Made by a program: the position numbers and the translations under genes
Origin: a virus
Direction: 5' to 3' (one strand)
Length of the DNA stretch: 39,254 bases
Virus genome (UHGV): UHGV-0143367
In this document: positions 23,951 through 39,042 of the stretch, piece after piece
How positions within the stretch are numbered: the first letter of the stretch is position 1
How the letters are laid out: every line of letters starts with the position of its first letter
The notes under the pieces: model-generated
Database searches by the model: none
The model's input: the letters and a program-made list of their open reading frames with translations, nothing else
Told to the model about the DNA's origin: nothing

Positions 23951-24034
23951 CGAGATCCCCTTTCCTTGATGATACTGTTTATTTATACAGTGTAAATAGA
24001 GAAAGGGGATCTTCCAAGCTGATTTTAAAAATAT

Positions 24035-24661
24035 TTATCGTATCGATAGGTTTTTGTATCGGATTGTTATCAATCCATATTTCCCAGAACTGATTGCAGC
24101 GGCGCCAGCGGCCAGGATGTCATCACGGTTTATCGGTAGGCCGGCGGCAAGGATTGGATGCTCCCCGGGGATAAATTCAGCAACGCAGTGGTTTTCGGTC
24201 TGCTCGTTGTCTATTTTCCCTGTCGCTGAATCCACAAAACCTACTCGGCCAACGATAAACCAGATTCGGCTGGCCAGCTGCCAGGGAAACCAGTTTTCGC
24301 CAGGACGGGCACGGAAAAGCCATTGAGAATAAGCACCACGCTCAGCCTCTACGCGCGCCTTACGGAAGAAGTTTCCCATGCCATTGTGCGGAGTGGCCGC
24401 TCGGCTGTCCTCTTTCGAGAATGGCGGGTTGGCATAAAGCGCCGGCAGTACGCCGCGACGTTTTGTTTCAGCCATCCAGTCCAGCTGCAGGCAATTATCT
24501 TCGCGGGTAAAAAACTCCGGCAGAAGATGATTTTCAGTGCTGGCGCATGCATCAACATGGCAAGGGCGCAATAGCTCGAAAAGGCCCGCGGCTATGCGCG
24601 GGTCAGTTCTCCATGTGTCTCGATGCTCAGCGGCGGTGTGGCTGCGATGATCTAAGAGCAT
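24035..24661 (-). CDS. Phage Dam-family DNA N6-adenine methyltransferase
   Basis: 208 aa; NPPF motif (LYANPPFS) preceded by a DACAS segment, arrangement of small phage Dam-family enzymes. Confidence 0.65.
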   Translation of the reverse strand: MLLDHRSHTAAEHRDTWRTDPRIAAGLFELLRPCHVDACASTENHLLPEFFTREDNCLQLDWMAETKRRGVLPALYANPPFSKEDSRAATPHNGMGNFFRKARVEAERGAYSQWLFRARPGENWFPWQLASRIWFIVGRVGFVDSATGKIDNEQTENHCVAEFIPGEHPILAAGLPINRDDILAAGAAAISSGKYGLITIRYKNLSIR

Positions 24662-24888
24662 GCCACCTCCCGAATACGATAGCTGTATGACTTACCTGGC
24701 CCGTTGGAACGGCGCTCGGCTTCACCCAACTCTACTGCGCTATCGAGCATGCGACGAATAGTCCTAGTATTCAGGCCAACATCAAATGACAACGTGCCGG
24801 TAGAAATGAAACCATCACCGCCGGCAGTGACGTTCGCCATTGTTCGGCGCGTCAATGTGTTTATCAATACGATGTTCCGGTCTATCAT
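24652..24888 (-). CDS. Hypothetical protein
   Basis: 78-aa ORF, translationally coupled. Confidence 0.35.
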   Translation of the reverse strand: MIDRNIVLINTLTRRTMANVTAGGDGFISTGTLSFDVGLNTRTIRRMLDSAVELGEAERRSNGPGKSYSYRIREVACS

Positions 24889-25196
24889 GCGCCCCCCTGA
24901 TCTGCGTCGGGTAAACGCTTAATTAGTTCCTGCACATCATCAACAATTTTCTCAGCCTGCAGGCGAAGGTCGCTTTTCGGAGTAGGGCGATCCCATTTTG
25001 CCATCTGGGCGCTTTCTTCTGCAGAATGCGTTGCCAACCGAGACAGCTGTCCGTTAAGACCATCATCAATATTGCGCGTTTCGTCAGCTTTCATGCCGTT
25101 ACACTGCCCATATTCAACATCAACATATTCGCGAATATCCTGGCTTGTCGCAGTATCTGGCACTTCAATTTCGACTGTCACTGTTACTACTTTCAC
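24885..25196 (-). CDS. Hypothetical acidic protein
   Basis: 103-aa ORF. Confidence 0.35.
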   Translation of the reverse strand: MKVVTVTVEIEVPDTATSQDIREYVDVEYGQCNGMKADETRNIDDGLNGQLSRLATHSAEESAQMAKWDRPTPKSDLRLQAEKIVDDVQELIKRLPDADQGGA

Positions 25197-25447
25197 TGTT
25201 CCGGCCTCCAGTCGAGTGGAAATACCTCATCCAAGAATCGGCAATTTGTCGCCTTACCATCGCGCGATTTAACGAGAATGTTCACAACGAATATGCCAAG
25301 ACGGTGTTCCTCTTCAATAACTGATTTTCTGACTTCATAGCCGACAACCTCATATTCGCGCATACCGCATGACGACAGGTTAATAAGCACGAAACAACCG
25401 ACGGGAGGAAGGTTTTTCCCATCCCAGATACTTTTCATTCCCATCAT
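25193..25447 (-). CDS. Hypothetical protein
   Basis: 84-aa ORF. Confidence 0.35.
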   Translation of the reverse strand: MMGMKSIWDGKNLPPVGCFVLINLSSCGMREYEVVGYEVRKSVIEEEHRLGIFVVNILVKSRDGKATNCRFLDEVFPLDWRPEQ

Positions 25448-25740
25448 GCTTCTCCTTCGATAACCAATCTGCGCACTTTAATCAGGTGTGGACGGGTTAG
25501 TTTGCACAGTTGCTCGGTTGCGGCGTCGATGGTGTCGAACTTGTGCGCCTCTTCGATATTCAGCGTCCAGTATTTGGCCTTACCATCACCTAAATCAGAC
25601 TCGAAATAGTTTCGCTTTACGTCCATACGCTTTGGCCTACCGAGCATCAACACAATGCCACGCTCATCAAAGAGAATGTCGTCACCCTCCAGCGTCATTA
25701 GGACAAATGGCCCTTCTGGTTTCACTGTTTTGATTGTCAT
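25444..25740 (-). CDS. Hypothetical protein
   Basis: 98-aa ORF. Confidence 0.35.
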   Translation of the reverse strand: MTIKTVKPEGPFVLMTLEGDDILFDERGIVLMLGRPKRMDVKRNYFESDLGDGKAKYWTLNIEEAHKFDTIDAATEQLCKLTRPHLIKVRRLVIEGEA

Positions 25741-25768
25741 AATCCGCGCTCCTTTCTTGTCTGAGTGC

Positions 25769-26395
25769 CTATTGCGCCGGAAATGCCGTCTCTAGATGGC
25801 AGTAATGCGCGCCGTCATGCTTAACCGATAAATCCAACTCCCTTTTACAGCGTGGGCATACAGCTACTGGCTTACAGCCCGCAGCAACAAGAGCTTCGAT
25901 TACTTGGTACTCGTTCATCACTAACGGCAGTTCGATATCTCCATCCGGATAGAACGAGTCCGGCAGCTTGACGGGGCGGAACTCCAGCTCAGCAATATGT
26001 GATTTAGCTTCTTCGTATGCATGGACATAAACACCCATCGTCCGCAGGAGGTTCAGACGGCCTGCAACTAACTCGGCAATCTGTTTATCCCTAGCTTCCA
26101 GCTCGCCTACCAGCGCCATGACATTGGTCGGATTGGCCAGCGCAATGAATGCGGCATCATGGGCCGTATTCAGCTCGCTTCTCCATTCTGAGCGAAATAA
26201 TTTGCACAGAACTACGCGAGCCGCTCCGCCTCTTAGCAAGGCAACTGGCGCCTGAACAATTGAGTTGAACCCGGAGCGCGCATAACTCCACTCGCCTTGA
26301 GTCGCAAGACTTGCGGCTAATTTCATCCGTTGAACCAGTTCAGTGATAGCGCTCATTTCTTCACCTTCCATTTGCGATCGCATTCTTCCAACCAA
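25769..26395 (-). CDS. Hypothetical protein, possibly Ead/Ea22-like, with C-terminal Cys4 cluster
   Basis: 208 aa; coiled-coil middle and CPRCK...C.H C-terminus; family assignment from memory only. Confidence 0.35.
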   Translation of the reverse strand: MVGRMRSQMEGEEMSAITELVQRMKLAASLATQGEWSYARSGFNSIVQAPVALLRGGAARVVLCKLFRSEWRSELNTAHDAAFIALANPTNVMALVGELEARDKQIAELVAGRLNLLRTMGVYVHAYEEAKSHIAELEFRPVKLPDSFYPDGDIELPLVMNEYQVIEALVAAGCKPVAVCPRCKRELDLSVKHDGAHYCHLETAFPAQ

Positions 26396-26754
26396 CCAGC
26401 TAAATTCGCGCTGGCTATTCCATTCATGCCTGTACCTAAATGATATTTTTCACGATGCTTTCTGCAGCGAATCCATACAGGAAATGCCACTATCCAGAAG
26501 ATGAACGGCCAGACAACAATTCCTGCCAAAGCAGTGATAAGAACCGCCAGCATGAGCGGTAGCTCCCTGACTTCCGTGCCAGGGAATTCATAACAAACAT
26601 CTGCAAAAGCTGAAAAAACGGCATCGTATCTGTCGGCTGTAAAAGCCATGCAGTCCAGATAGTTAAAATCGTATCCGGTCGCCGCAGCCCATGTAGGGCG
26701 ATCGAGGAAGTGCTTAAGCGTTAGCATCCTGCCCACCACTCGGTTGATATTCAT
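26356..26754 (-). CDS. Small membrane protein (uncertain)
   Basis: 133 aa from internal ATG of ORF 26353-27099; hydrophobic stretch LPLMLAVLITALAGIVVWPFIFWIVAFPVWI; overlaps exonuclease 3' end by ~40 nt. Confidence 0.25.
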
Positions 26755-27676
26755 AAAGGCCCTGGTGGCGCTTATCGCGCGTGTTCCAGTTCTTCTTGGC
26801 GGCGTTCTCCAGCTGCTCGACGTCGCTATCATCAAACACAACATCGGTGGCCTCTTCGCCATGTGCGCCGCACTCATGACAGAAAACAACGGCGCCGGCA
26901 TACAGGCCATCCTCGCCATAGTTGGCTGGGTTCCACAAAGGTTTGTACTGGAGGCCATGCAGGTGGTGAACAAACACAGACGGCGGCCCGTAGCAGAACG
27001 GGCAGGGGGCCAGCCCTGAATCATCACTGTGGTGAAGGTCAGCGCCGCTGTCTGGAAGATGGGGATCGTTGCAGACGCTTTCCAGAACGCGGAGAACACG
27101 CTGGCAGTCGGCCAGCGAACGGTGAGCTTCAGCGCTGACAGTTACACCCTGCTGAACAACGGCCATCGACAGAGACTGTCGGACAAAGTTTCTATCCTTC
27201 ATAGAAAGCGCGCCGTACCACTGGCTGTAAGTCTCTTTCGCATCGATATGGCCAGAATGAATGCGGCTGTACATTTCCAGCATGGCCGCCGGTGCCAGAT
27301 CGTTATAAAGGCCAGTAATCAGGCAGGTCTGAGTAATCAACCGGGCATCAAATTTTGAGTTCCAGGCAAGCCACTTATGGCCGCCAATCGCGGCGACTAC
27401 CGCCGGATAAACTTCCTGCCAGGATGGGGCATCAGCAACCATTTCGTTGGTGATGTTGTTGATAGCGGTCGCAGCTGCGGGGATAGGGCGGGTCGGCTTA
27501 ACAAGCGTATCAAGCAGCACATCACCACGCATATTGATGATCGAGATTTCGATAATCTCATCATTATCTGCCATCCCGGTTGTTTCCGTATCAATAATAC
27601 GAAAATCACTTTTAAGCCATGTAGCCATTAACAGCTGTAAAATAGTCTTATGTGCATTATCCATCATTATTTCCAT
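26714..27676 (-). CDS. DnaQ-like DEDDh 3'-5' exonuclease fused to a C-terminal Lar-like zinc ribbon
   Basis: Exo I motif FRIIDTETTG near N-terminus, H-x4-D (HRSLAD) Exo III-like; C-terminal CPFCYG...CHECGA...AAKKNWNTR resembles the Lar restriction-alleviation family. Confidence 0.65.
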   Translation of the reverse strand: MEIMMDNAHKTILQLLMATWLKSDFRIIDTETTGMADNDEIIEISIINMRGDVLLDTLVKPTRPIPAAATAINNITNEMVADAPSWQEVYPAVVAAIGGHKWLAWNSKFDARLITQTCLITGLYNDLAPAAMLEMYSRIHSGHIDAKETYSQWYGALSMKDRNFVRQSLSMAVVQQGVTVSAEAHRSLADCQRVLRVLESVCNDPHLPDSGADLHHSDDSGLAPCPFCYGPPSVFVHHLHGLQYKPLWNPANYGEDGLYAGAVVFCHECGAHGEEATDVVFDDSDVEQLENAAKKNWNTRDKRHQGLYEYQPSGGQDANA

Positions 27677-27867
27677 ATTCTTTGTTGATATGTCGCTGAT
27701 TGTCTGGGGCGAAATCTGCTGACTGGCAGATAAACCTGAACATATTTAAGACCTGGCTGAAACGACGCCGTTATTGATACCCGGCGTCCTGATGCTTTGT
27801 ACTTATTTGCCAGCTCCGTAGCTTCCTGTTCTGTCATTGGCCCCTGCATAAACAGATCCAATGCCAT
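27667..27867 (-). CDS. Hypothetical small protein
   Basis: 66-aa ORF between exonuclease and rdgC-like gene. Confidence 0.3.
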   Translation of the reverse strand: MALDLFMQGPMTEQEATELANKYKASGRRVSITASFQPGLKYVQVYLPVSRFRPRQSATYQQRIWK

Positions 27868-27869
27868 AT

Positions 27870-28808
27870 TTATTCCTGTGGCGTGAGGCTATTATCTTCC
27901 AGATCCACGCCGATAAACTCTTCCAGCCCGGACAGAATTTGATGTGTGTAGTTAGTCACGAGGTGCATTTCAGCAATCAAAGCCTGCGATAAGTCATCGC
28001 GTTCCATATCATCGTCGTAATCGAACGATTTTAAATGAACGTTGCCATTCGGCGGCATGACAAGGTTGAAGTTCGCTAAGTTTTCAATTTGACCATTATC
28101 AGGGCGTTTATAAAGAGACATCTCAACTGAACGGGCCGTCATTCCGGAAAGAATATTTCGTGCATCGTCAGTATCATTCGATACGCCATCAAGCGTGATT
28201 TTTAAAGACGTGTCTTCACCAGTGAATAACGTTTTCCCATACGGCGAAATAGCCAATATAGGTGGCAGCTTATAGATGCTATTTCCCTCAGTCATATTCT
28301 TAGTAACTGCTGTGGAAGTAAAATGTGAATTCCCCCATGGCATCGCATGCAGACTGCCCAGCGTGTTACGCAAAAATGACAGTGCATCCTCACACTTTGA
28401 TGCCGTTCCGCCAGAAACCAACAGAAGGCGGCGAGCTGGCCACATCAGGATGTAGATCGCGGTGTTACTGATTGGGGAGTACTTCATCACATCGCTCTCA
28501 GCCTGGAAGCGCATCTCTTCCATCAGCTCCGGAGTAACCTCCCGACCGTCTACGATTACTTCATCGGTACGTTCGTTAAGCAGACGCTGAACCGCCAGCT
28601 GGTCAGGGCGGCGCTTGCTAGCGAAATAACGGAAAAGATACTTACCATCAACAGTAAGCATGCGTTCATCGCCAATTCTGGCCCAGCCTTTACCCTCACG
28701 TTCACAATCAGACAGGCCATCAAACGCACGTTCGATGAGTAGTTCGTTGATGTTTTCGGGTACTGCTGTTTTGCTGATGTAAGGGAATACGCAACGGAAG
28801 TTTTTCAT
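27870..28808 (-). CDS. rdgC: RdgC-like recombination-associated protein
   Basis: Matches E. coli RdgC segments as recalled (ASKCEDALSFLRNTLGSL vs AKKAEDTLALLRKSLGSL); start set to internal MKNFRCVF. Confidence 0.65.
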   Translation of the reverse strand: MKNFRCVFPYISKTAVPENINELLIERAFDGLSDCEREGKGWARIGDERMLTVDGKYLFRYFASKRRPDQLAVQRLLNERTDEVIVDGREVTPELMEEMRFQAESDVMKYSPISNTAIYILMWPARRLLLVSGGTASKCEDALSFLRNTLGSLHAMPWGNSHFTSTAVTKNMTEGNSIYKLPPILAISPYGKTLFTGEDTSLKITLDGVSNDTDDARNILSGMTARSVEMSLYKRPDNGQIENLANFNLVMPPNGNVHLKSFDYDDDMERDDLSQALIAEMHLVTNYTHQILSGLEEFIGVDLEDNSLTPQE

Positions 28809-29044
28809 CTTATTTTCCTTTATAACGACGATTAGCATTGGCCCTGGCCTTATCCATGGCTTGCTGACGTTGGCTCTTTGTATTTGCCTTTGCTACTGGC
28901 TGCACGCTGGGTTCTGCCTGCCGTTTCGCTGGCGGGGAACGCAACCGCGCAATAAGTAGAAATAGCGATGAGTGAAATCACCAGAATCGTGATAAGTGCG
29001 ATTCGTCCCGAAAAGGTTATCTGCCATAATTACCTCATCCGATT

Positions 29045-29062
29045 TTGGGACCATGGTCCCAA
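29045..29062. repeat. SopB-box-like palindrome TTGGGACCATGGTCCCAA
   Basis: Perfect 18-bp palindrome, intergenic. Confidence 0.7.
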
Positions 29063-29066
29063 TGAG

Positions 29067-29369
29067 TTAAATATTCATCTTTTTTGCAAGACTTTCATTT
29101 TGTTGCTCTGTATAGCGCTTTAACCAAAGCTCCTGAATATGCTGGTCACCTGGTTTATTTGCGCCACACCACTCCGCAATAACGGCATTTCGACACCAGT
29201 CAGGATGTGTTCTGAATCCGCAAGATGGACAAAACATCAAATATTCATTGCGTAGCTCAGATCTAACTAATTTCGGTTTTACTGCGTGGTGATGCATTAC
29301 TTGTTTGCAAAGGCAGGAAGGAATTTCACCGCCTGTTGCTGATATGCTTCTTCCGTAATTGGTCGACAT
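29067..29369 (-). CDS. Small Cys/His-rich (zinc-ribbon-like) protein
   Basis: 100 aa with CLC...H, CPSCG, C...C clusters; function unknown. Confidence 0.4.
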   Translation of the reverse strand: MSTNYGRSISATGGEIPSCLCKQVMHHHAVKPKLVRSELRNEYLMFCPSCGFRTHPDWCRNAVIAEWCGANKPGDQHIQELWLKRYTEQQNESLAKKMNI

Positions 29370-29991
29370 GTATTAACGCCTCCCGATCCATTTGAACACC
29401 GCAGGCCAACATGACATCCCAGCGATTTTTATAATTCTTCCGCCATAGGTCATATTTCACACCACATAGCTGGCTCAATTCTTCCTGGCTGTATTTAAGC
29501 TCGCCGCGGTTAATGAAATTTTTTGATTCCTGTAGAGCCAACCAGGCAAGTGCTTTTAAGTTGCTTTCAGTCTTGCCGTTCATTTTTGGCGATTTGCTTT
29601 CAGCCAAGTTAATCAGCAGGGAATGCCAGATATGTGTTGTCAGTATTGTTTGATATTCAAATGAAATTGAATCGCCGTAGCAGTAATTCAACCAGGATTT
29701 ATACGGCTCAGGCATTTTCAATAACGCGCTACGCCATGACACCTGGCTAAAAATGGCTGGCGATACCGGGATCATGCTCGTATGGTAACGCTTGCCTTCT
29801 CTGTAGCTGATTGGCTCGGCATCAATGACAATGACAGTGTCGTTATCGATATCAATTTCACGCTGCGGCTTTGCAGTAAATCGGCTCTGCAGTGGCGCAC
29901 GTTCTGCCATCGCGATGATCTGATTGCGGTGCGATTTTGAGAACGACAAAAGCGCTGCAGTAAGCTCGTTGCGAACAAAATTAAACTGCAT
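29326..29991 (-). CDS. Hypothetical regulatory protein (candidate late antiterminator Q by position)
   Basis: 221-aa ORF downstream of cro in the immunity region; no motif confirmed. Confidence 0.35.
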   Translation of the reverse strand: MQFNFVRNELTAALLSFSKSHRNQIIAMAERAPLQSRFTAKPQREIDIDNDTVIVIDAEPISYREGKRYHTSMIPVSPAIFSQVSWRSALLKMPEPYKSWLNYCYGDSISFEYQTILTTHIWHSLLINLAESKSPKMNGKTESNLKALAWLALQESKNFINRGELKYSQEELSQLCGVKYDLWRKNYKNRWDVMLACGVQMDREALIHVDQLRKKHISNRR

Positions 29992-30634
29992 ATTTGCCCC
30001 CTGCTTGATGGCCTAGCGGGCTTAGCGCACTAAGTTCAACGTGGTCCGGTTTAATGCCGGTGGCCATTTCTATATTCAGGATTTCCCGATAGAGGTATGA
30101 CGACAACTCATACAGGCGGTTCTGCAGCTGCTTCAGCGCGTGCTGGTCATCACTGCCATCGTATACACCGTCCTGGGCTGGCGCTGAGTTGGCGAGAACG
30201 GCACCGAATTTCACAGTGATCTCGTCAATTTCAGCGTCGACAGAATCAACACGAATACGGTTGTACTTAGGCATGCGGACCCATTGCAGACCCTGCATTG
30301 CGGCCAGCTTTTGAGAGCACTTATTACGGTACTCTTCCGGAAGACATGACAACCACGTTAACACCCAGTCTGCAGGCATCGGCGTATCACCAGCCAGGAC
30401 GCGCTGTGCACGCTTAATGCAACGGCTACGCCAGCGCATGTAATCCGTGACATTGATGCCTTCAGACCCCATATCAACAAGTCCCTGGAGTTCCAGAGCC
30501 GGAATCAAGCGCATTGTAGAGAATTGTGCGACACTGCCGCCGGTTTCATCGAGCATCCGCAAGGTTGCCCGTATAACCACTGATGACATTGTGTCTCGCG
30601 ATGGACGTTTATTCTGCCCCATGGTCTGAGTCAT
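29981..30634 (-). CDS. Hypothetical early protein downstream of cro (candidate regulator)
   Basis: Start at ATG 30634 with AAGGA Shine-Dalgarno; overlaps cro 3' end. Confidence 0.4.
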   Translation of the reverse strand: MTQTMGQNKRPSRDTMSSVVIRATLRMLDETGGSVAQFSTMRLIPALELQGLVDMGSEGINVTDYMRWRSRCIKRAQRVLAGDTPMPADWVLTWLSCLPEEYRNKCSQKLAAMQGLQWVRMPKYNRIRVDSVDAEIDEITVKFGAVLANSAPAQDGVYDGSDDQHALKQLQNRLYELSSYLYREILNIEMATGIKPDHVELSALSPLGHQAGGKYAV

Positions 30635-30815
30635 CCTTTTCTTTATGCAGTGTGTAATCAGATTTGAGTCGGCCATTTGTCTTAACTTCCAGCTCGTACT
30701 GCCTAAGCATGGGGACATCCTCTCCCCATTTGTAGATCGCAACGCGAGTACAACCGAGCAGTTCGCAGAGTTTGTTTATGCCGCCGCAGGCGGCTATGGC
30801 GTCTTTTGTTTTCAT
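30609..30815 (-). CDS. cro: Cro-like HTH regulator
   Basis: 68 aa; HTH segment (AIAACGGINKLCELLGCTRVAIYKW); divergent from the repressor gene. Confidence 0.7.
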   Translation of the reverse strand: MKTKDAIAACGGINKLCELLGCTRVAIYKWGEDVPMLRQYELEVKTNGRLKSDYTLHKEKDDSDHGAE

Positions 30816-30930
30816 GAAATGATACTAACCAAGCTATACAAGTTTTGTAAAGTGTACTTGTCAAAATTTACATTAATATTCCCTTTAGCCTTGTATAGCT
30901 AGCTATACAGATTTGATTTAATATCTCTCT
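30816..30930. promoter_or_regulatory. Divergent cro/cB promoter-operator region with 18-bp perfect palindrome TGTATAGCTAGCTATACA (30892-30909) and half-site AGCTATACA (30832-30840)
   Basis: Minus-strand -35 TTGACA (30859-30864) with 17-bp spacer to TTGTAT (30836-30841); palindrome lies ~20 bp upstream of the apparently leaderless cB ATG. Confidence 0.5.
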
Positions 30931-31560
30931 ATGGAAAAACGTGGTGATTGGCTGAAGGCTCGCCGTGAAGAGCTGAAGAAGCGAAATAAATCAAAGTTCT
31001 CAGTGAGAGCTGTTGCCGAACGCATCGGTATTACCGGTGCTGGCCTCTCGCATCTCGAAAACAGCGATGCTATGCCCGCGTTAGATCTGGCTATCAAGCT
31101 GGCGCGAGAGCTGGGCCGTCCTGTTGAATGGATCTTAACCGGTGCTGGCGGGGATGTGTTCCGTGGAGTCCCTGTTATTGGTTCTACTGCTACCGGTCCC
31201 AATCTGGAAATGATAAACAGCGGTCTGGCTCAAAACTGCCGGGAATTCGTTGATATCAATGTACAGGATGCAGCCTTATACGGCCTGATGGTCGATAACG
31301 ACGTTGCAGCGCCGTATCATATCGGTGAAGTACTGATCGCAGACCCTAATCGCGAGCCGGTGACAGGGGAAGATGTGGTGGTAGTCACAAAATCTGGCAA
31401 TGATACGTTTATTAAGATGTTAGCGTCTAAACGTGATGGCAAAGTGTTTCTTGACGCGCCGAACGACAGATCTCAGCGCGTGATAATCGATCTTGACGAA
31501 ATTATTTTGATTCATCCCGTTATCTGCGTGGCTAAATCTATAGCAGTTAAGGCCAGATAG
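30931..31560 (+). CDS. cB: Prophage repressor CB (CI-like HTH-XRE with C-terminal S24/LexA-like domain)
   Basis: 209 aa; N-terminal HTH (FSVRAVAERIGITGAGLSHLEN), C-terminal beta-rich domain; divergent from cro. Confidence 0.75.
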   Translation: MEKRGDWLKARREELKKRNKSKFSVRAVAERIGITGAGLSHLENSDAMPALDLAIKLARELGRPVEWILTGAGGDVFRGVPVIGSTATGPNLEMINSGLAQNCREFVDINVQDAALYGLMVDNDVAAPYHIGEVLIADPNREPVTGEDVVVVTKSGNDTFIKMLASKRDGKVFLDAPNDRSQRVIIDLDEIILIHPVICVAKSIAVKAR

Positions 31561-31841: not shown

Positions 31842-31868
31842 CTGCGCAACTGCGCAGCGTCTTTTTTT
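31842..31868 (+). terminator. Terminator-like hairpin plus T7 run ending ~10 nt before the repA start codon
   Basis: CTGCGC-aact-GCGCAG stem followed by CGTCTTTTTTT, then GGTGA Shine-Dalgarno and ATG. Confidence 0.4.
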
Positions 31869-31878
31869 GGGTGAAATA

Positions 31879-34800
31879 ATGAATTTAACGGAATATTTTC
31901 AACACAAATTTAACTCTGACCCGTTTTCGCTGCTTGATGCAGCATCAAATGAACTGAGTGATCTCGCGAACGCTGCCGGTATCGACTGGCATAAATGCGC
32001 TGGAGATATTCAGCTTTCTGCCTCTCGCGGTTCCGCTGAAAAATTCACAAAGTATGCCCACCATGGTCCTGCCGTTACTGATCCAAAGCTGAAAGGCAAG
32101 GTTGAGATTTACTCCCGCATGGAGTGTTCTCAGGACGGTATCAAATACCCGTTCATCAACTTTGTCTGTAAAGGTGCTGACGCTGGCGTATGGAGTGGCT
32201 TCCAGTTCCTTATCTCTGAATACCGTCGATACAAAGAACAGAACGGTGGGACCGTGGTCCCACTGTCTGCGCGTGAACTGGAGCAGCGTAAACGTGCTGA
32301 GGCGCGCCGCCATGAACGTGAGCGCCAGCAGGCTATCTCTGTGTTTATGGAGTCGCAGCGCCGCGACGCTGACCTGAACGAATACCTGCAGTTCTCCGCC
32401 GCATTCGCCAAGGCACCGGCAGAAGATGGTTCATGGCCATATGCGGTGAAGAAAGGCATCAGCTCTGTTTTCTCATACTGTAACGTAAGACGCGTAACCC
32501 ATTGGGACCATGGTCCCAATTCTAAAGCGGTTAAAAAACAAACTGTTATGGCGATTCCGCTGTCGCATATTGATGACCGTCGGGAAGACCGTGAATCTCG
32601 CGTTGGGCCGATTGTTGGCTGGCAGCGAATCACCGAGAGAAACGACAAGCTGCAGACCCGCGCTGTAGATTCCGGTGACTTTGCCGGTTCGTGTCACATC
32701 ATCGGCCAGCTGCGCGGCGCAACCAGGATCTGTGTTGTTGAAGGGTTCGCGACTGGTGCCAGCGTGTTCGCTGTAGCGAAAAAACGCTTTGATGCTGTTG
32801 TTGTGGCTGTGTCAGCAAATAACGTTATCAAGGTTGTTGATCAGCTGGTCAGCCTGTACCCAGGCATGGAAATCTGGTGCGCACTGGATAACGACCAGAA
32901 ATCGGCGCGGAATGGAAAAGGCAATACCGGGTTAAGAGTCGGCATCGATGTGATGAAGAAATTCCCGCAGGTCCGCTGCACATTCCCGATTTTCGACAGC
33001 AGCGAAACCGAATTAAGCGACTTTAACGATCTCCACCAGGCGCGCGGCGCCACCGAAACCAACCGCCAGCTGTTTTCAAAACAGAACCGCCTGCAGCTGC
33101 CAGGCAATTCCTTTGATGCTGAAATGCTGTCTCTGGCCGTTGCGCCGGTTTCCGATCGCCGCGCGTTCTCGCGCCAGCTGGTACGCTGCATTGATGCCGG
33201 CATGATGCAATGCCCGTCCAAGTTATCCCCGCAGGAGCTGATCTCGCTGATAAAAATGAAGCTGGACCAGCTCGGCGCCGACAAAGCGCTGCACGGTACC
33301 GTGTATAACCGCGTTAAACGCGCCTTCAAACAGAAATGCGACAAGGCCCAGGCTTTCCGATCATTCAGCGAGCGCGTAACGAACCCGGCAATACGCCCCG
33401 ACCACATCACCTATAAGCGGTTTGAAACACCCCACATGACCAAGGAAGTGCTGGATTACATCAAAGCACTGAGCGGCCCGGTAATCGTCCGTGCCGGCAT
33501 GGGGTCGGGCAAATCCAAACACTTGCTGCGCCCTATGATGCACAGCGCGCAGCGCGGCGTTTCGGTGGCGCACCGCGTTTCGCTGATTGGTGGCCTCTGG
33601 GACATGATGACGCGTGCCGACGATGGCCGTCGCATGAATTGCGACATCCTGCACTACCAGGACCCCGGCTATCAGGAGCTGGCGCCGTATGCCAGCAAAC
33701 TGACAATTTGTATTAACTCTATCGTGAAGGGCTGCTGGCAGCCACTGATGCGCAAACACGATTTCTTTGGCCTGGATGAAGCCACCCAGGGCCTGCGCGC
33801 CACGCTTTCCGGTAAAGCGATGGCGCACCCGGTTGATGTATTCAACCGTCTTATCGACTCTATCGCGTACAGCGATGACCACGCGCTGCTGGTTGATGCA
33901 GACGCCAGCGATATCCTGGTAGACCTCTGCGAACTGGCGCTGGCCAAACGCGAACAAACAGGCCTGTCGACCTGGACACAGATCCACGTCATCGAGCTGC
34001 CGGTTGATGTGAAGTACAAAAAAGCCGATGGCACGCGCGAAGCGCGCCGCGTACTTTACACCGACACCGATCGCATCATGGTTGAAGTACTGAAAGCCGT
34101 GGCTGCCGGCGAAAAATTCCTGCTGGCCACTGACTCAACCAACTTTGCCGAACAGTTGCTACTGCAGCTGCGCGACCGCTGGCCAGAAAAGAAATGGCTT
34201 TACGTCAGCCAGGACACAAAGCCGGATCAGGAAGTTGTGGCGTTTACCGACGCGCCGAACCAGCGCGCTAAACTCTACGATGGCCTTATTTATAGCCCGG
34301 CTATCAGTTCTGGCGTATCGATCGAAGAACGGCACTTCACCCGCCATTTCGGCTGCTTCTGCGGCCAGGTAGTGCCGTCCGACGCCATTCAGATGCTGCG
34401 CCGCGACAGGACCGCCACCGAATTTATGGTCGGCCTGAACAAGCTGCCTGGCGTACGCGAAGAGAACGCCGACAACATCCGCCGTGGGTTCCTGCAGGCA
34501 CTGCTGGAAACTGCCGAGATAAACGAAGAATTTACCGACGCCATCCTGGATGGCGACCGCCTTTCCCTTGGTCTGGCGGACACCACCTATGTCCGCATGA
34601 AATTTAAAGTTGCCGCGATGGAGGCCCAGGCCAGAAACGATTTCGCCAACAACCTGATCTGCATTCTCTACGCCGATGGCTATAACGTCAGCCACTTGGC
34701 CGAAGACTCGCTGGCCAGCGAAACCGGCAAAGAACTGCGTAAGGCATCGAAAGAGCGGGTCTGGGATATGACCGTTCTGCGCCATATGGAAGTGGAAACC

Positions 34801-35868
34801 CCGGACGAAGACGAACGCGACGAACTGATGGGCAAGCGATCACTATCTGAAGATGAGCAGGCGCAACTGGCGCGCTGGGATATCGAAAAAGAGTTGATGC
34901 TGGATGTCAGCCCGGAATCTCTGAAATTCCTGCTCGATGGCGGGAAGAAGAAACTGACGCTGGCCGAACTGATGACGATGGATGAAATGACCGCCGCACG
35001 CATTGACCGTGAGCAGCAGGCTTTCACGTTCACCTACCAATTCCGCAAAGGGCCGCGTAACGAATTTGTAACGATCACCGCGCTCAACCGCGAAGCAGCT
35101 GATGCGCAGTTCGACCGCATGCAGCCAGGAATAACCGGCTACACCGTCCAAAGCCGCCCGGTGATGGAAGTAACCCAGCGTACGTACGCATCGCTGCACC
35201 GTAAGGCCGCCAGGGAGTATTTCTCCACCTGCGGTATTAACCCAGATACCGGCGCCGGTGAAGCCAGCCAGGAAGGTATGGCGGAAGCTATGGCCAAACT
35301 TATGGACCCAACCACCGCGGATCGTTTCAACAACGTCCTGCGGTTCGGTGGCTATATAAACCCTAAAGGCCGCCAGAAACGCCCCGAGACGGTTTTCAAA
35401 CAGATCTGTGAGGCATTCGGTTACGCGACTCAGAAACGCCGCCTACCGCGTTCACAGGGCCTCGGTTACGTGTGGTCAATCGTCCCCGAATCCTGGGAAT
35501 TCATTCACGGAATTCTGGCGCGTCGCGCCGAGGCATCACTGTCGTTTGTCCAGATGAAACTGGATGTGGGGGCACCGGAAGAACCGGATCTCGATTGCCG
35601 ATCAAATATAGATGTAAGATCCCAATCTGGATCTGCTGAGACGGCATTTATTGAGGCAACGCTGACGACGATTGAAGAGGCTATCGCTGCGATGCCGGTG
35701 CCATTTGCATGGCTGAGAACCGCACTGACGCCGGAAGAACTGGCACAACTCGCGACTATGCCGCCACGGTTGATACAGGCGACGGTTGCCGGGCTGTTTA
35801 TGGCTGACAATATGTGGCAACTATCAGATGGCCAATACAACGAACTGAAGCGGTTGCAGGCGGTTTAA
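31879..35868 (+). CDS. repA: Replication protein RepA (primase-helicase) of N15-type linear plasmid-prophage
   Basis: About 1329 aa from ATG 31879 (ORF track begins at upstream TTG); Walker A GMGSGKSK; size and position next to cB and telN as in N15. Confidence 0.85.
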   Translation: MNLTEYFQHKFNSDPFSLLDAASNELSDLANAAGIDWHKCAGDIQLSASRGSAEKFTKYAHHGPAVTDPKLKGKVEIYSRMECSQDGIKYPFINFVCKGADAGVWSGFQFLISEYRRYKEQNGGTVVPLSARELEQRKRAEARRHERERQQAISVFMESQRRDADLNEYLQFSAAFAKAPAEDGSWPYAVKKGISSVFSYCNVRRVTHWDHGPNSKAVKKQTVMAIPLSHIDDRREDRESRVGPIVGWQRITERNDKLQTRAVDSGDFAGSCHIIGQLRGATRICVVEGFATGASVFAVAKKRFDAVVVAVSANNVIKVVDQLVSLYPGMEIWCALDNDQKSARNGKGNTGLRVGIDVMKKFPQVRCTFPIFDSSETELSDFNDLHQARGATETNRQLFSKQNRLQLPGNSFDAEMLSLAVAPVSDRRAFSRQLVRCIDAGMMQCPSKLSPQELISLIKMKLDQLGADKALHGTVYNRVKRAFKQKCDKAQAFRSFSERVTNPAIRPDHITYKRFETPHMTKEVLDYIKALSGPVIVRAGMGSGKSKHLLRPMMHSAQRGVSVAHRVSLIGGLWDMMTRADDGRRMNCDILHYQDPGYQELAPYASKLTICINSIVKGCWQPLMRKHDFFGLDEATQGLRATLSGKAMAHPVDVFNRLIDSIAYSDDHALLVDADASDILVDLCELALAKREQTGLSTWTQIHVIELPVDVKYKKADGTREARRVLYTDTDRIMVEVLKAVAAGEKFLLATDSTNFAEQLLLQLRDRWPEKKWLYVSQDTKPDQEVVAFTDAPNQRAKLYDGLIYSPAISSGVSIEERHFTRHFGCFCGQVVPSDAIQMLRRDRTATEFMVGLNKLPGVREENADNIRRGFLQALLETAEINEEFTDAILDGDRLSLGLADTTYVRMKFKVAAMEAQARNDFANNLICILYADGYNVSHLAEDSLASETGKELRKASKERVWDMTVLRHMEVETPDEDERDELMGKRSLSEDEQAQLARWDIEKELMLDVSPESLKFLLDGGKKKLTLAELMTMDEMTAARIDREQQAFTFTYQFRKGPRNEFVTITALNREAADAQFDRMQPGITGYTVQSRPVMEVTQRTYASLHRKAAREYFSTCGINPDTGAGEASQEGMAEAMAKLMDPTTADRFNNVLRFGGYINPKGRQKRPETVFKQICEAFGYATQKRRLPRSQGLGYVWSIVPESWEFIHGILARRAEASLSFVQMKLDVGAPEEPDLDCRSNIDVRSQSGSAETAFIEATLTTIEEAIAAMPVPFAWLRTALTPEELAQLATMPPRLIQATVAGLFMADNMWQLSDGQYNELKRLQAV
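32247..32262. repeat. SopB-box-like inverted repeat TGGGACC-GT-GGTCCCA inside repA
   Basis: Direct match; encodes ...GGTVVP... in the RepA frame. Confidence 0.65.
32501..32520. repeat. SopB-box-like palindrome ATTGGGACCATGGTCCCAAT inside repA
   Basis: Perfect 20-bp palindrome; encodes ...HWDHGPN... in the RepA frame. Confidence 0.7.
35585..35640. other. Candidate replication-origin element inside the 3' end of repA: four GATC sites in 47 bp with inverted repeat AGATCC...GGATCT
   Basis: GATC at 35587, 35600, 35618, 35630; the N15 ori maps within the 3' part of repA (recalled, not verified here). Confidence 0.3.
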
Positions 35869-37140: not shown

Positions 37141-39042
37141 TTAATTTTCTGGGAAATACGCAAACCATGCTGATTTCATGGCACTGCTGATACTATCCGC
37201 CGCGCCACTCCAGGCGTATAGCTGCCCCTTGTATTTGAAACGGATCGTCCAGCTGCCGTCGTCACTACGAACGGGCGCGGAGAAGCGTGGACGAGTGTCT
37301 ATTGGTACTGGTTTTTCCTCTTCGGCCTCGGCGGTCACGCCATCTTCTCGGCCTTCCTCTTCAGCTTCCAGCGCCTGGGTATCGTCACTGGTTTCCTCTC
37401 TATCGGCACCGCTATCGCCAGCGAGGTCGTCTTCACCATCCAGTTCGTCAGAGGTTATGACAATAGAGGGCGCATCTGCATTGTTAATCGTACTGCTCAT
37501 AGCCAGCGCCTCAGCAACAAAATCAAGATACCGGCGAACTAGCGTCGGGTTAAATCCAGCATCTCGTAATATTTTTGTGTTGATGACGATATCAGCTGAT
37601 TCCTCCACCAGCCGCTTTGTTGTTTCATGAATACGGATACCGGCATCGCCCCTGGCGAAGCCAGGCATTTGGTCGTCAAGCGCTTGTAGAGCAGCGAGGC
37701 GCTTATTTTCAATCCCCGTTTCCGGGCGCCAGCTGCGTGAGAAATTATGCAGTTTGAACTGTTTGTAGTGCAGCTGCGTATTTTCGTCGTCATGCCCCAG
37801 GATTTCAGAGAAAAAGACGTCCTCATCAACGTTTTTCCAGCGCGGGTCGTAGCGGAAAAACGCCTCATAGGTGATACGCGCATAAATTGCGCGCGTGTCT
37901 TTGAATGTTCGGCGGTCGTCGCCGAAGAACAGCTTCGCGTGCTGGTTAAATGTGTTACCAAGAATTGATGCGATGCGCACATTTGCGGCCCGGTAGCTAT
38001 CATCGTTCAACAGAGATCTGATTTCGTCAAAATCAGCCGCTGCGGGGCAACTTCTCAGTTCATTTAAACGTTGAACGAACAGGGCCGGGTCGCACAGCAC
38101 ATAAATTTTACGCCCCTTATCCTCGCCGGTTCGTTTTTTGGCCTGCCCGTAGAAAATAACTTCATACTTGCCGGTAACCTCAAATTCTCCCTGAACCATC
38201 ACCTCAATCAATCGACGCCCGGATACGGCTGCTAGCGCGAACGCCAGCGGCGCCATATCCTTACGTTGCGTGATAAGTGATGGTTCAAACGCCTTGTAGA
38301 TCTGCTCGGTCACAGCCTGCATATATTTGGGGTAGTCCAAGAGTACAGTTGACCGTTTCTTCTCGCTGAGCACCTCGCCCCAGCGCTGCTGTATCGATGA
38401 GCGTTCTGCCGGACTCAACTGCAGGTGATACAGAATTTCATGGTTGATTTTCAGGCCGTTCAGATCATCCAACAAGCGGGTTCCCTGTTGGAACGCGGCA
38501 TGCATTTCGGTTTCGACCGACTTCCAGTCTTGGCTGGTCAACGCGTTAAGATAGATGCTCCAGGCAGGGTATTTTTTTGCCAGGCGCGTCAATTTTTTCT
38601 CCGCAGCCGGTCCGAACTTCATACCCGAAAGCACCTCCGCCAGCGGCATAATTTCCTTCAGTTGGCCCTGTAGATTGCCGTATGCCTGACGAATATCTGC
38701 CGCAGGCATAGATTGCCACGCCTGTAATTCAGCACTGTAGGCGGGGTATTTTGCCGCTAACTTTTCAATGCTGCTGGTGAAGTGATGGTGCAAACGGTCG
38801 TCGAACTGTTTACGAATACGGGTCATATACGCGTTATAAGTATTGGCTGTAATGCGTTTCTTCAAACCGTTACCACGGAACTTCCTTTTATCTAAAAATA
38901 GCGCGTTTTTAACACGTGTAGCCGCAGCCTTATATTTTCGTGTCTTATCTCCCTGTGGGATGTCGGACGCTTCGATAGCGTCAACGTCCGCCACCAAATC
39001 AGAGATGATTTTACCAATTCCGCCATCGCCTAGCTTCGCCAT
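37141..39042 (-). CDS. telN: Protelomerase (telomere resolvase) TelN
   Basis: 633 aa; long blocks match N15 TelN as recalled (QGDKT, NALF.DKRKFRG.GL.KRITAN, HLQLSPAER.SIQQRW, MAPLAFALAAVSGRR, WKNVDEDVFF.EILGHDDENTQLHYKQFKL.NFSR.WRPE, MPGFARGDAG); acidic C-terminal tail; GAGGGGGG Shine-Dalgarno. Confidence 0.95.
   Translation of the reverse strand: MAKLGDGGIGKIISDLVADVDAIEASDIPQGDKTRKYKAAATRVKNALFLDKRKFRGNGLKKRITANTYNAYMTRIRKQFDDRLHHHFTSSIEKLAAKYPAYSAELQAWQSMPAADIRQAYGNLQGQLKEIMPLAEVLSGMKFGPAAEKKLTRLAKKYPAWSIYLNALTSQDWKSVETEMHAAFQQGTRLLDDLNGLKINHEILYHLQLSPAERSSIQQRWGEVLSEKKRSTVLLDYPKYMQAVTEQIYKAFEPSLITQRKDMAPLAFALAAVSGRRLIEVMVQGEFEVTGKYEVIFYGQAKKRTGEDKGRKIYVLCDPALFVQRLNELRSCPAAADFDEIRSLLNDDSYRAANVRIASILGNTFNQHAKLFFGDDRRTFKDTRAIYARITYEAFFRYDPRWKNVDEDVFFSEILGHDDENTQLHYKQFKLHNFSRSWRPETGIENKRLAALQALDDQMPGFARGDAGIRIHETTKRLVEESADIVINTKILRDAGFNPTLVRRYLDFVAEALAMSSTINNADAPSIVITSDELDGEDDLAGDSGADREETSDDTQALEAEEEGREDGVTAEAEEEKPVPIDTRPRFSAPVRSDDGSWTIRFKYKGQLYAWSGAADSISSAMKSAWFAYFPEN

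Follow-up and report, generated by a model that had tools for sequence, protein, structure and literature searches.

What does it signify when a phage joins a DnaQ-type exonuclease and a Lar-like zinc ribbon in a single polypeptide? The question is raised by a gene at positions 26714-27676, on the minus strand, of the virus genome UHGV-0143367. We call the whole stretch of DNA that was analysed, 39,254 nucleotides (nt) in length, the window, and we refer to the gene and its product as exo-Lar. A sequence-only reading of this DNA had interpreted the gene as a covalent fusion of an exonuclease with a module resembling stand-alone Lar proteins, and had proposed that such an unusual domain combination, lying in the early region, suggests an anti-restriction or recombination-promoting role. 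The view at which we arrive, and which we hold with belief and doubt in about equal measure, is that exo-Lar would be an early-lytic accessory protein that combines a predicted active 3′-5′ DNA exonuclease with a Lar-type binding module acting independently of it.

The gene is one uninterrupted open reading frame (ORF) of 320 amino acids (aa) plus a stop codon, without a frameshift or an internal stop, so that the claim of a single-gene, covalent fusion holds. In a Pfam search with the whole protein, RNase_T (PF00929) matches aa 27-198 (E 1e-18; 68.8 bits, with a gathering cutoff of 24) and spans model positions 2-164 of 164, and Lar_restr_allev (PF14354) matches aa 222-300 (E 3e-11; 43.7 bits, with a cutoff of 28.6). 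Scanning each half separately led to the same Pfam assignments; with the C-terminus alone, PF14354 scores 46.7 bits and model positions 3-57 of 58 are covered. The PHROG matches are phrog_192, ‘DNA polymerase exonuclease subunit’ (E 1e-39), and phrog_599, ‘Lar-like restriction alleviation protein’ (E 6e-10). We regard this anatomy and family assignment as close to certain. There are three candidate start codons, namely M1 (27676), M4 (27667, where a TAATG overlaps the stop codon of the upstream gene) and M5 (27664, the start chosen by the gene caller in the related contig L006), and the ambiguity leaves the conclusions about the protein unchanged. We also considered whether the locus consists of two genes or contains a frameshift. 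This was rejected, as there is a single ORF in the window, in phage N15 and in the related contigs L006 and L007, and both halves are under purifying selection. The selection analysis used Nei-Gojobori estimates of the ratio of nonsynonymous to synonymous substitution rates (dN/dS), comparing the window gene with its counterparts in L006, L007 and N15.

The N-terminal ~200 aa are predicted to form a catalytically intact DEDDh 3′-5′ exonuclease with an RNase H-like alpha/beta fold. The domain, of the DnaQ/RNase T type, occupies aa 27-198 (27083..27598; this and all other features within the gene are on the minus strand) and is recognized by PF00929, by PHROG 192 and by its fold. The DEDDh residues that the sequence-only reading had placed here are all present (D29, E31, D110, H185 and D190). 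Conservation was judged from alignments of 17 and of 64 homologues. The Exo I motif D29-T-E31, which contains metal-binding carboxylates (27584..27592), is invariant in the 64-sequence alignment; the Exo II aspartate D110 (27347..27349) is invariant in the 17-sequence alignment and at least 90% conserved in the 64-sequence alignment; and both residues of Exo III, H185-x4-D190 (27107..27124), which includes the ‘h’ of DEDDh, are invariant in both alignments. The domain has a dN/dS of 0.10-0.20. In the AlphaFold (AF2) model, the predicted local distance difference test score (pLDDT) exceeds 90 over most of the domain. The model of the full protein has a predicted template modelling score (pTM) of only 0.65, which, like its low-confidence linker, is in keeping with separable modules.

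A Foldseek comparison of the exonuclease model with the Protein Data Bank (PDB) gave a probability of 1.00 for Pol III epsilon, DinG-exo, PolC-exo, ExoX and RNase T, and the top structures (epsilon, DinG-exo, PolC-exo and ExoX) had E values of 1e-8 to 2e-7 and target template modelling (TM) scores of 0.65-0.77. By sequence and by fold, the exonuclease is nearest to the DNA exonucleases Pol III epsilon (DnaQ), PolC-exo, ExoX and DinG-exo, with which it has the fold and the DEDDh motifs in common at 19-27% identity. As far as its sequence can be judged, nothing supports membership of a polymerase-subunit family. The label ‘DNA polymerase exonuclease subunit’, which is widespread for exo-Lar-type proteins, is unsupported at the equivalog level, because all NCBIfam epsilon equivalog cutoffs are widely missed (TIGR01406, 50.2 versus a cutoff of 222.7; NF004316, 48.7 versus 196); the NCBIfam epsilon and PolC matches moreover end near residue 116-123. 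A role as a component of a defence system was considered as well and rejected: PADLOC gives only generic DEDDh (CRISPR-associated) and PDC-S48 exonuclease profiles, without a system context.

The exonuclease is followed by an inter-domain linker (aa 199-221; 27014..27082) that is variable, with indels and low identity in the alignment. Its pLDDT is below 50 at residues 206-212 in the AF2 model, and its dN/dS of 0.25 against L007 and about 2 against N15 indicates relaxed constraint. Beyond it lies a Lar-family Cys4 zinc-ribbon module, matched by PF14354, with an enlarged beta-hairpin and a C-terminal helix (aa 222-300; 26777..27013). The three motifs that had been noted from the sequence, CPFC, CHECGA and WNTR, are all in place, at residues 225-228, 266-271 and 297-300. 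Zinc knuckle 1, C225-P-F-C228 (26993..27004), is invariant in both fused and free-standing members of the subfamily, as is the VFCHECGA block that contains zinc knuckle 2, C266-H-E-C269 (26870..26881). In W297-N-T-R300, which lies on the C-terminal helix (26777..26788) and aligns with WNKR of RalR, the W and the R are invariant in the subfamily. A tail of 20 residues follows the Pfam match (aa 301-320; 26717..26776). Its start is conserved, with a helix predicted at 302-309 and with L307 invariant and Y308 nearly so across the subfamily; its last ~14 residues are poorly conserved, and its pLDDT is below 50 at 307-320. The Lar module has a dN/dS of 0.04-0.17 and a pLDDT of 74-88 in the full-length model. 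When the C-terminus is modelled alone, the pLDDT is 81, and a four-stranded sheet and a long helix are predicted.

How closely this module is related to characterized Lar proteins is a separate matter. The NCBIfam model TIGR03655 (anti_R_Lar) gives 25.4-26.5 bits, below its cutoff of 39.6, and NF007260, the RalR equivalog, gives 12.5 bits versus a cutoff of 113 and matches only residues 18-36 of the C-terminal fragment. We compared the module with Lar/RalR of the Rac prophage (NP_415864), using the sequence of the annotated K-12 record. BLASTP aligned the first knuckle alone. An hhalign comparison of the subfamily profile with Rac Lar/RalR gave a probability of 87% (E 3.7e-6), with CPFC, CxxC and WNxR aligned. 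Among the predicted viral structures of BFVD, the best matches of the C-terminal model are proteins annotated as Lar, and these matches are weak (E 7.6e-4, TM ~0.5). Profile searches with the two halves thus recovered the exonuclease and the Lar family, and an unrelated zinc ribbon at the C-terminus was rejected on the basis of the Pfam Lar match above threshold and of the profile-profile alignment with RalR; the sole competitor was a weak NOB1 ribbon (E 0.04-0.19). The proposed resemblance to stand-alone Lar proteins therefore stands in that the Pfam Lar profile is passed, but the module is divergent, falls below the TIGR03655 cutoff and is not orthologous to RalR. We assign the C-terminus, from its profile matches, to the Lar family as a divergent member of a distinct, enlarged-hairpin subfamily with ~29 extra residues.

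Rac Lar is like the window module in belonging to PF14354 and in being a phage early accessory gene, one that adjoins recE-recT. It differs in being free-standing, with 64 aa in all; the window module is appended to an exonuclease and is ~29 residues longer, with its enlarged hairpin and an extra helix, and the motif is WNKR in Rac Lar and WNTR in the window. The base composition of the module is distinctive, too. The G+C content (GC) of the Lar-coding segment is 59.5%, compared with 52.3% for the exonuclease part and a mean of 49.5% for the early region (24000-31000). The segment is the most GC-rich stretch of this region, within about the top 1% of all 237-nt segments there. This contrast hints that the Lar cassette has a different origin from its surroundings.

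Although the combination of domains had been thought unusual, the same architecture is found in gp41 of N15 and in ~44 database clusters. In a tblastn search of phage records, N15 gene 41 matched with 56% identity over 96% of the query. A collection of 5.8 billion proteins contains ~44 clusters (at 90% identity) that have both PF00929 and PF14354, which come from N15, Enterobacter, E. coli and metagenomes; some already carry a name, either ‘exonuclease domain-containing protein’ or ‘Lar family restriction alleviation protein’. One family search retrieved both the window protein and gp41 (P0028). All four cysteines and the W..R motif are reported as invariant across the ~44 fused clusters. The nearest relatives, 97% and 72% identical to exo-Lar, are encoded on the syntenic contigs L006 and L007, assembled from the SRA runs ERR11042443 and SRR10692767, where the gene order is RepA, repressor, Q, RdgC, 66-aa gene, exo-Lar, Ea22, Dam. 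Complete E. coli genomes and plasmids contained no near match, and scans of species-representative genomes and of IMG/VR returned relatives of the exonuclease domain only, none of them with the fusion. The exo-Lar fusion is thus a known architecture and no new combination.

Within this family, the closest named counterpart is N15 gp41 (NP_046936, 304 aa, annotated in RefSeq as ‘DNA polymerase exonuclease subunit’). Its two Pfam domains are those of exo-Lar and follow one another in the same way, the DEDDh and Cys4 residues are kept, and the gene occupies the same place in the early-right operon, preceded by cro and Q and followed by small accessory genes and a methyltransferase. The repressor, Q, exo-Lar and Dam genes of the window are ordered as in N15. 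There are also differences. On a tree of the exonuclease domain, the window protein falls in a separate clade (with P0001-P0004); its linker is longer than that of gp41; and between Q and the exonuclease the window has an extra 100-aa PHROG 6795 ORF, an RdgC-like gene and a 66-aa ORF, none of which is annotated in N15. From conserved gene order and domain content, we take the window gene to be the syntenic orthologue of N15 gene 41, and its product to be a divergent member of the gp41 family, an early accessory protein of a telomere phage. Some members of the N15 clade depart from the common architecture. The first zinc knuckle is deleted in P0045 and P0046, and P0075 is shortened to 214 aa. 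These variants represent secondary decay or loss of the Lar module within that clade.

The two domains also occur apart from one another. The exonuclease is found alone as phiKO2 gp39 and in many relatives from Klebsiella and Salmonella, at 202 aa and with nothing Lar-like downstream. The comparison with phiKO2 gp39 (202 aa) is especially direct. This protein of a Klebsiella phage is the orthologous exonuclease, 57% identical across aa 5-202 and likewise encoded behind Q in the operon, but it lacks a C-terminal module, and the downstream gp40 and gp41 have no match to Lar or to any other Pfam family; the exonuclease evidently does not need the zinc ribbon. Nor was there an adjacent, ‘split’ version of the gene pair, since no ORF with a Lar pattern was found within 3 kb of 50 exonuclease-only loci. 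Conversely, the exonuclease is missing from the corresponding operon of contig L003 (repressor, Q, RdgC, 66-aa ORF ... Dam, DinI), which has at this locus a separate Lar-like gene of 123 aa.

Other relatives have exchanged one partner for another. In Salmonella relatives, the partner of this exonuclease is Ead/Ea22 (PF13935) or else an unannotated extension of 100-300 aa. Four proteins of Salmonella telomere phages (P0070, P0080, P0082 and P0083) are listed as joining an Ead/Ea22 domain directly to the exonuclease, in place of Lar, and in P0171 the Lar module is accompanied by a domain matching phrog_19550, a family that is also matched by the Ea22-like protein of the window. These fusions, of Ead/Ea22 with the exonuclease and of Lar with phrog_19550, imply that modules of the exonuclease, Lar and Ea22 types have been paired in several ways. 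On the neighbour-joining tree of the exonuclease domain, calculated without bootstrap support, the proteins with a Lar module make up at least four groups, between which other architectures are interspersed. When the C-terminus alone was the query of an exhaustive search, 112 representative clusters were retrieved, which are mostly free-standing phage proteins of 90-150 aa; all exo-Lar fusions collapse to one representative among them. In the longer proteins of this Lar subfamily, the module is N- or C-terminal to several different phage modules of unassigned function, in which Pfam recognizes no known partner domains and PHROGs matches only families without an assigned function. A module matching phrog_8593/14118 is N-terminal to Lar in one of P0139 and P0142 and C-terminal in the other. 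The occurrence of phrog_8593 on either side of Lar suggests that adjacent early genes have fused more than once, now in one order and now in the other. On these comparisons the Lar zinc ribbon behaves as a separable, mobile cassette.

A Lar-type gene stands beside an exonuclease in another setting as well. In the Rac prophage (L005; E. coli K-12 NC_000913.3, 1413733-1417386), lar/ralR lies immediately downstream of recE (exonuclease VIII) and recT, which means that a Lar-type gene beside an exonuclease/recombination function is also found in Rac, as separate genes. In the same prophage, ralA overlaps the neighbouring rcbA.

We propose the following for exo-Lar. The gene would be transcribed in the early lytic operon behind Q, and its product would deliver two largely independent activities on one polypeptide. 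The first would be the trimming of 3′ DNA ends, either in the host DNA or in intermediates of phage replication or recombination. The second would be Lar-type binding; on the model of Rac Lar, it would tip the type I restriction-modification (R-M) enzymes of the host in favour of modification before the phage DNA has been methylated. De novo methylation by EcoKI is believed to be stimulated by Lar and by Ral (PMC3177214), and a bias towards modification fits the neighbouring methyltransferases. Since the modules occur apart and recombine freely, we favour two independent functions; that they are separable, as opposed to parts of an obligate joint mechanism, is a proposition to which we give a little less than even weight. 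The separation of the modules in sister phages weakens the idea that the fusion signals a joint mechanism. An anti-restriction or recombination role, as the sequence-only reading had suggested, is plausible from the family name and the neighbouring genes, and the operon context, with genes for Dam and N6_N4 methyltransferases and an RdgC-like protein, is consistent with an anti-restriction or DNA-transaction role. That exo-Lar in fact alleviates restriction seems to us rather doubtful.

Several points weigh against this proposal. Our literature searches found no experiment on the window protein or on N15 gp41, and no functional study of gp41, of an exo-Lar fusion or of Lar-domain function. The preference for DNA over RNA as the substrate of the exonuclease draws on its nearest relatives only. 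The case for transferring Lar activity to the module is weak, given the missed TIGR03655 cutoff, the absence of a RalR equivalog match and the ~29 extra residues. Restriction alleviation has been shown for Rac Lar only, and its own mechanism is unknown (PMC3177214). In addition, RalR, which is identical to Lar, has been reported as a non-specific DNase toxin (PMC4041452). The lack of bootstrap support in the exonuclease tree must also be counted here. Finally, the fusion is kept under purifying selection among proteins as divergent as 54% identity, which may fit a cooperative mechanism equally well.

This last point is the starting place for the alternative that survives best, namely that the halves form one machine, in which the Lar ribbon serves in cis as a DNA- or partner-binding domain that recruits or orients the exonuclease. 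The substrates envisaged are junctions of single- and double-stranded DNA, hairpin-telomere replication intermediates or a host protein complex. We consider this a possible explanation, though on the unlikely side. The retention of the fusion over deep divergence, with purifying selection in both domains, speaks for it, and DEDDh exonucleases with an appended zinc domain do exist. One of these, C. elegans CRN-4, is among the fold matches of the exonuclease (Foldseek ranks 19, 31 and 32); like exo-Lar, it consists of a DEDDh nuclease followed by a small zinc-binding domain, which we take to be unrelated in sequence to Lar. This C-terminal zinc domain is reported to bind DNA (Hsiao et al. 2009, a study cited in PMC6294518). 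However, CRN-4 is a eukaryotic apoptotic nuclease, and the likeness is one of analogy, not of homology of the fusion. Closer to the Lar family, there is a DnaE1 polymerase whose C-terminal domain, the one that binds partners, has given way to a Lar-like domain (PMC3919608). Against recruitment in cis stand the phiKO2-type phages, which have the same exonuclease without the C-terminal domain, and the unrelated C-termini found elsewhere. Moreover, the Lar subfamily is mostly free-standing or is fused to unrelated modules on either side, and the linker is unconstrained and modelled as disordered.

A more specific version holds that the covalent link is functional because the ribbon docks the exonuclease onto a particular host complex, which would make 3′-end trimming part of a mechanism not described before. 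The docking site might be a type I restriction enzyme that is stalled, or is translocating, on unmodified phage DNA, or else the RepA/Pol III replisome at hairpin-telomere intermediates. The data are compatible with a functional covalent link because a diverse clade has kept the two domains side by side, both of them under purifying selection; nevertheless, we judge this docking model, including its candidate sites, to be improbable.

The annotation of gp41 points to another alternative, in which exo-Lar is a proofreading subunit of the phage that replaces the host epsilon on Pol III in RepA-driven replication, with the zinc ribbon as a tether in place of the alpha-binding peptide of epsilon. 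The best fold matches are indeed Pol III epsilon structures, and epsilon and PolC models are among the NCBIfam matches. Phages of the N15 type rely on the polymerase of the host and contribute only RepA. For replication of the plasmid, no gene other than repA is needed (PMC10612081), and the DnaE1-Lar fusion offers a precedent for a Lar-like domain on a replicative protein (PMC3919608). Yet the epsilon equivalog scores given above are all far under their cutoffs, and the epsilon and PolC matches stop at about residue 123, with the Lar module in the place of the alpha-binding segment (that segment and the clamp motif were not scanned for). ExoX and DinG-exo, which are not polymerase subunits, match about equally well, and the bare 202-aa exonuclease of sister phages has no tether of any kind. 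We therefore think a proofreading role very unlikely.

The report of RalR as a DNase toxin (PMC4041452) raises the further prospect of a combined endo- and exonuclease, in which the Lar module would cut DNA and the exonuclease would enlarge the nicks or breaks, so that host or competitor DNA would be degraded in lytic growth. In principle, the invariant His-Glu pair in knuckle 2 (C-H-E-C) of the subfamily could be catalytic. However, RalR has C-N-G-C at the aligned position, so that the pair is not a shared catalytic feature; the module falls short of the RalR equivalog, at 12.5 versus 113 bits; and the neighbours of the gene in the early operon of this temperate phage-plasmid are small accessory genes. 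This possibility deserves little credence.

Least credible of all is a fortuitous read-through fusion of two adjacent small genes with a non-functional or decaying C-terminal part, for although genes of this operon overlap at start and stop codons, so that single-base changes can fuse neighbours, and although the first knuckle is missing from two variants of the N15 clade (P0045, P0046) and the entire module from a third (P0075), the selection analysis largely refutes it (the low dN/dS of the Lar part), the four cysteines and W..R are invariant across the ~44 fused clusters, and the module folds confidently on its own (pLDDT 81).

The genome around exo-Lar is that of a telomere phage of the same type as N15, phiKO2 and PY54, whose prophage is a linear plasmid. 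Among its products are a protelomerase in which Pfam recognizes all four TelK/TelN domains (37141-39042) and a RepA-like protein of 1333 aa (31867-35868), along with a helix-turn-helix (HTH) repressor and terminase, portal, capsid and tape-measure genes. In comparisons with phage records, the RepA region resembles PY54 and other parts resemble phiKO2, at 71-75% DNA identity, and known telomere phages reach at most 75% identity to the window, with partial coverage only. No complete E. coli genome gave a megablast match to the window, and the PLSDB plasmids gave a single weak match. The lineage of this phage is thus poorly sampled; the exo-Lar architecture itself is not new.

The gene belongs to the early region, as the sequence-only reading had it; the Q antiterminator is encoded upstream of it, and it lies between genes for RdgC-like and Ead/Ea22-like proteins. 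The early-lytic operon is entirely on the minus strand. In the order of transcription, it comprises genes for a CII-like activator (29981-30742), the Q antiterminator (29326-29991), a 100-aa ORF matching PHROG 6795 (29067-29369), the RdgC-like protein (27870-28838), a 66-aa ORF (27667-27867), exo-Lar, a predicted membrane protein of 124 aa (26353-26727) that matches PHROG 2638, a family without an assigned function (E 3e-40), the Ead/Ea22-like protein (25769-26395), several small ORFs, a Dam-type methylase (PF05869; 24035-24661) and an N6_N4 methylase (PF01555; 22023-23084).

Upstream of exo-Lar, the 100-aa ORF and the 3′ end of the Q gene share 44 nt. The ORF matches PHROG 6795, also named ‘Lar-like restriction alleviation protein’, with an E value of 8e-40 and has no Pfam match. 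We rejected it as a paralogue of the fused Lar module, as hhalign gave a probability of 3% and any relation is undetectable. The ORF is conserved in L006 and L007, and at the equivalent place in N15, between genes 40 and 41, there is an unannotated gap of ~410 nt. The RdgC-like protein, encoded two genes upstream of exo-Lar, scores 33 bits with PF04381 and matches PHROG 724, ‘exonuclease recombination-associated’ (E 6e-43). In PY54, insertion mutants in the RdgC-like gene (ORF46) and in other accessory genes of the region are viable (PMC10612081), so the region fits a set of dispensable accessory genes.

Downstream, the ATG of the 124-aa gene lies within the final 14 nt of the exo-Lar ORF, and this 14-nt overlap suggests that the two genes may be translationally coupled. 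The ORF list gives the 124-aa gene in a longer version, a 248-aa ORF with a GTG start that overlaps the Lar-coding region in another frame. A CPRC...H..C motif is found at the C-terminus of the Ead/Ea22-like protein. At the end of the early region, the Dam-type and N6_N4 methyltransferases are both orphans, in that no restriction partner for either was identified among the neighbouring ORFs that were scanned, and the pair fits self-methylation as an anti-restriction strategy. In L003, L006 and L007, DinI is also present between the two methyltransferase genes.

Few anti-restriction functions have been known for as long as Lar and Ral, and the mechanism of the two has stayed unknown (PMC3177214). 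A natural fusion of Lar to an enzyme that can be assayed, in the tractable model phage N15, offers a way into this mechanism, and it lets one ask whether the ribbon binds DNA, the type I R-M complex or a component of the replisome. At the same time, exonuclease, Lar and Ead/Ea22 modules are shuffled in the early operons of telomere phages, in both fused and unfused forms, which cautions against taking a single fusion as a ‘Rosetta stone’ for joint function. If the ribbon does dock the exonuclease onto a host complex, the fusion would provide the first mechanistic handle on Lar-family proteins and would reveal a previously undescribed mechanism of anti-restriction or of telomere replication.

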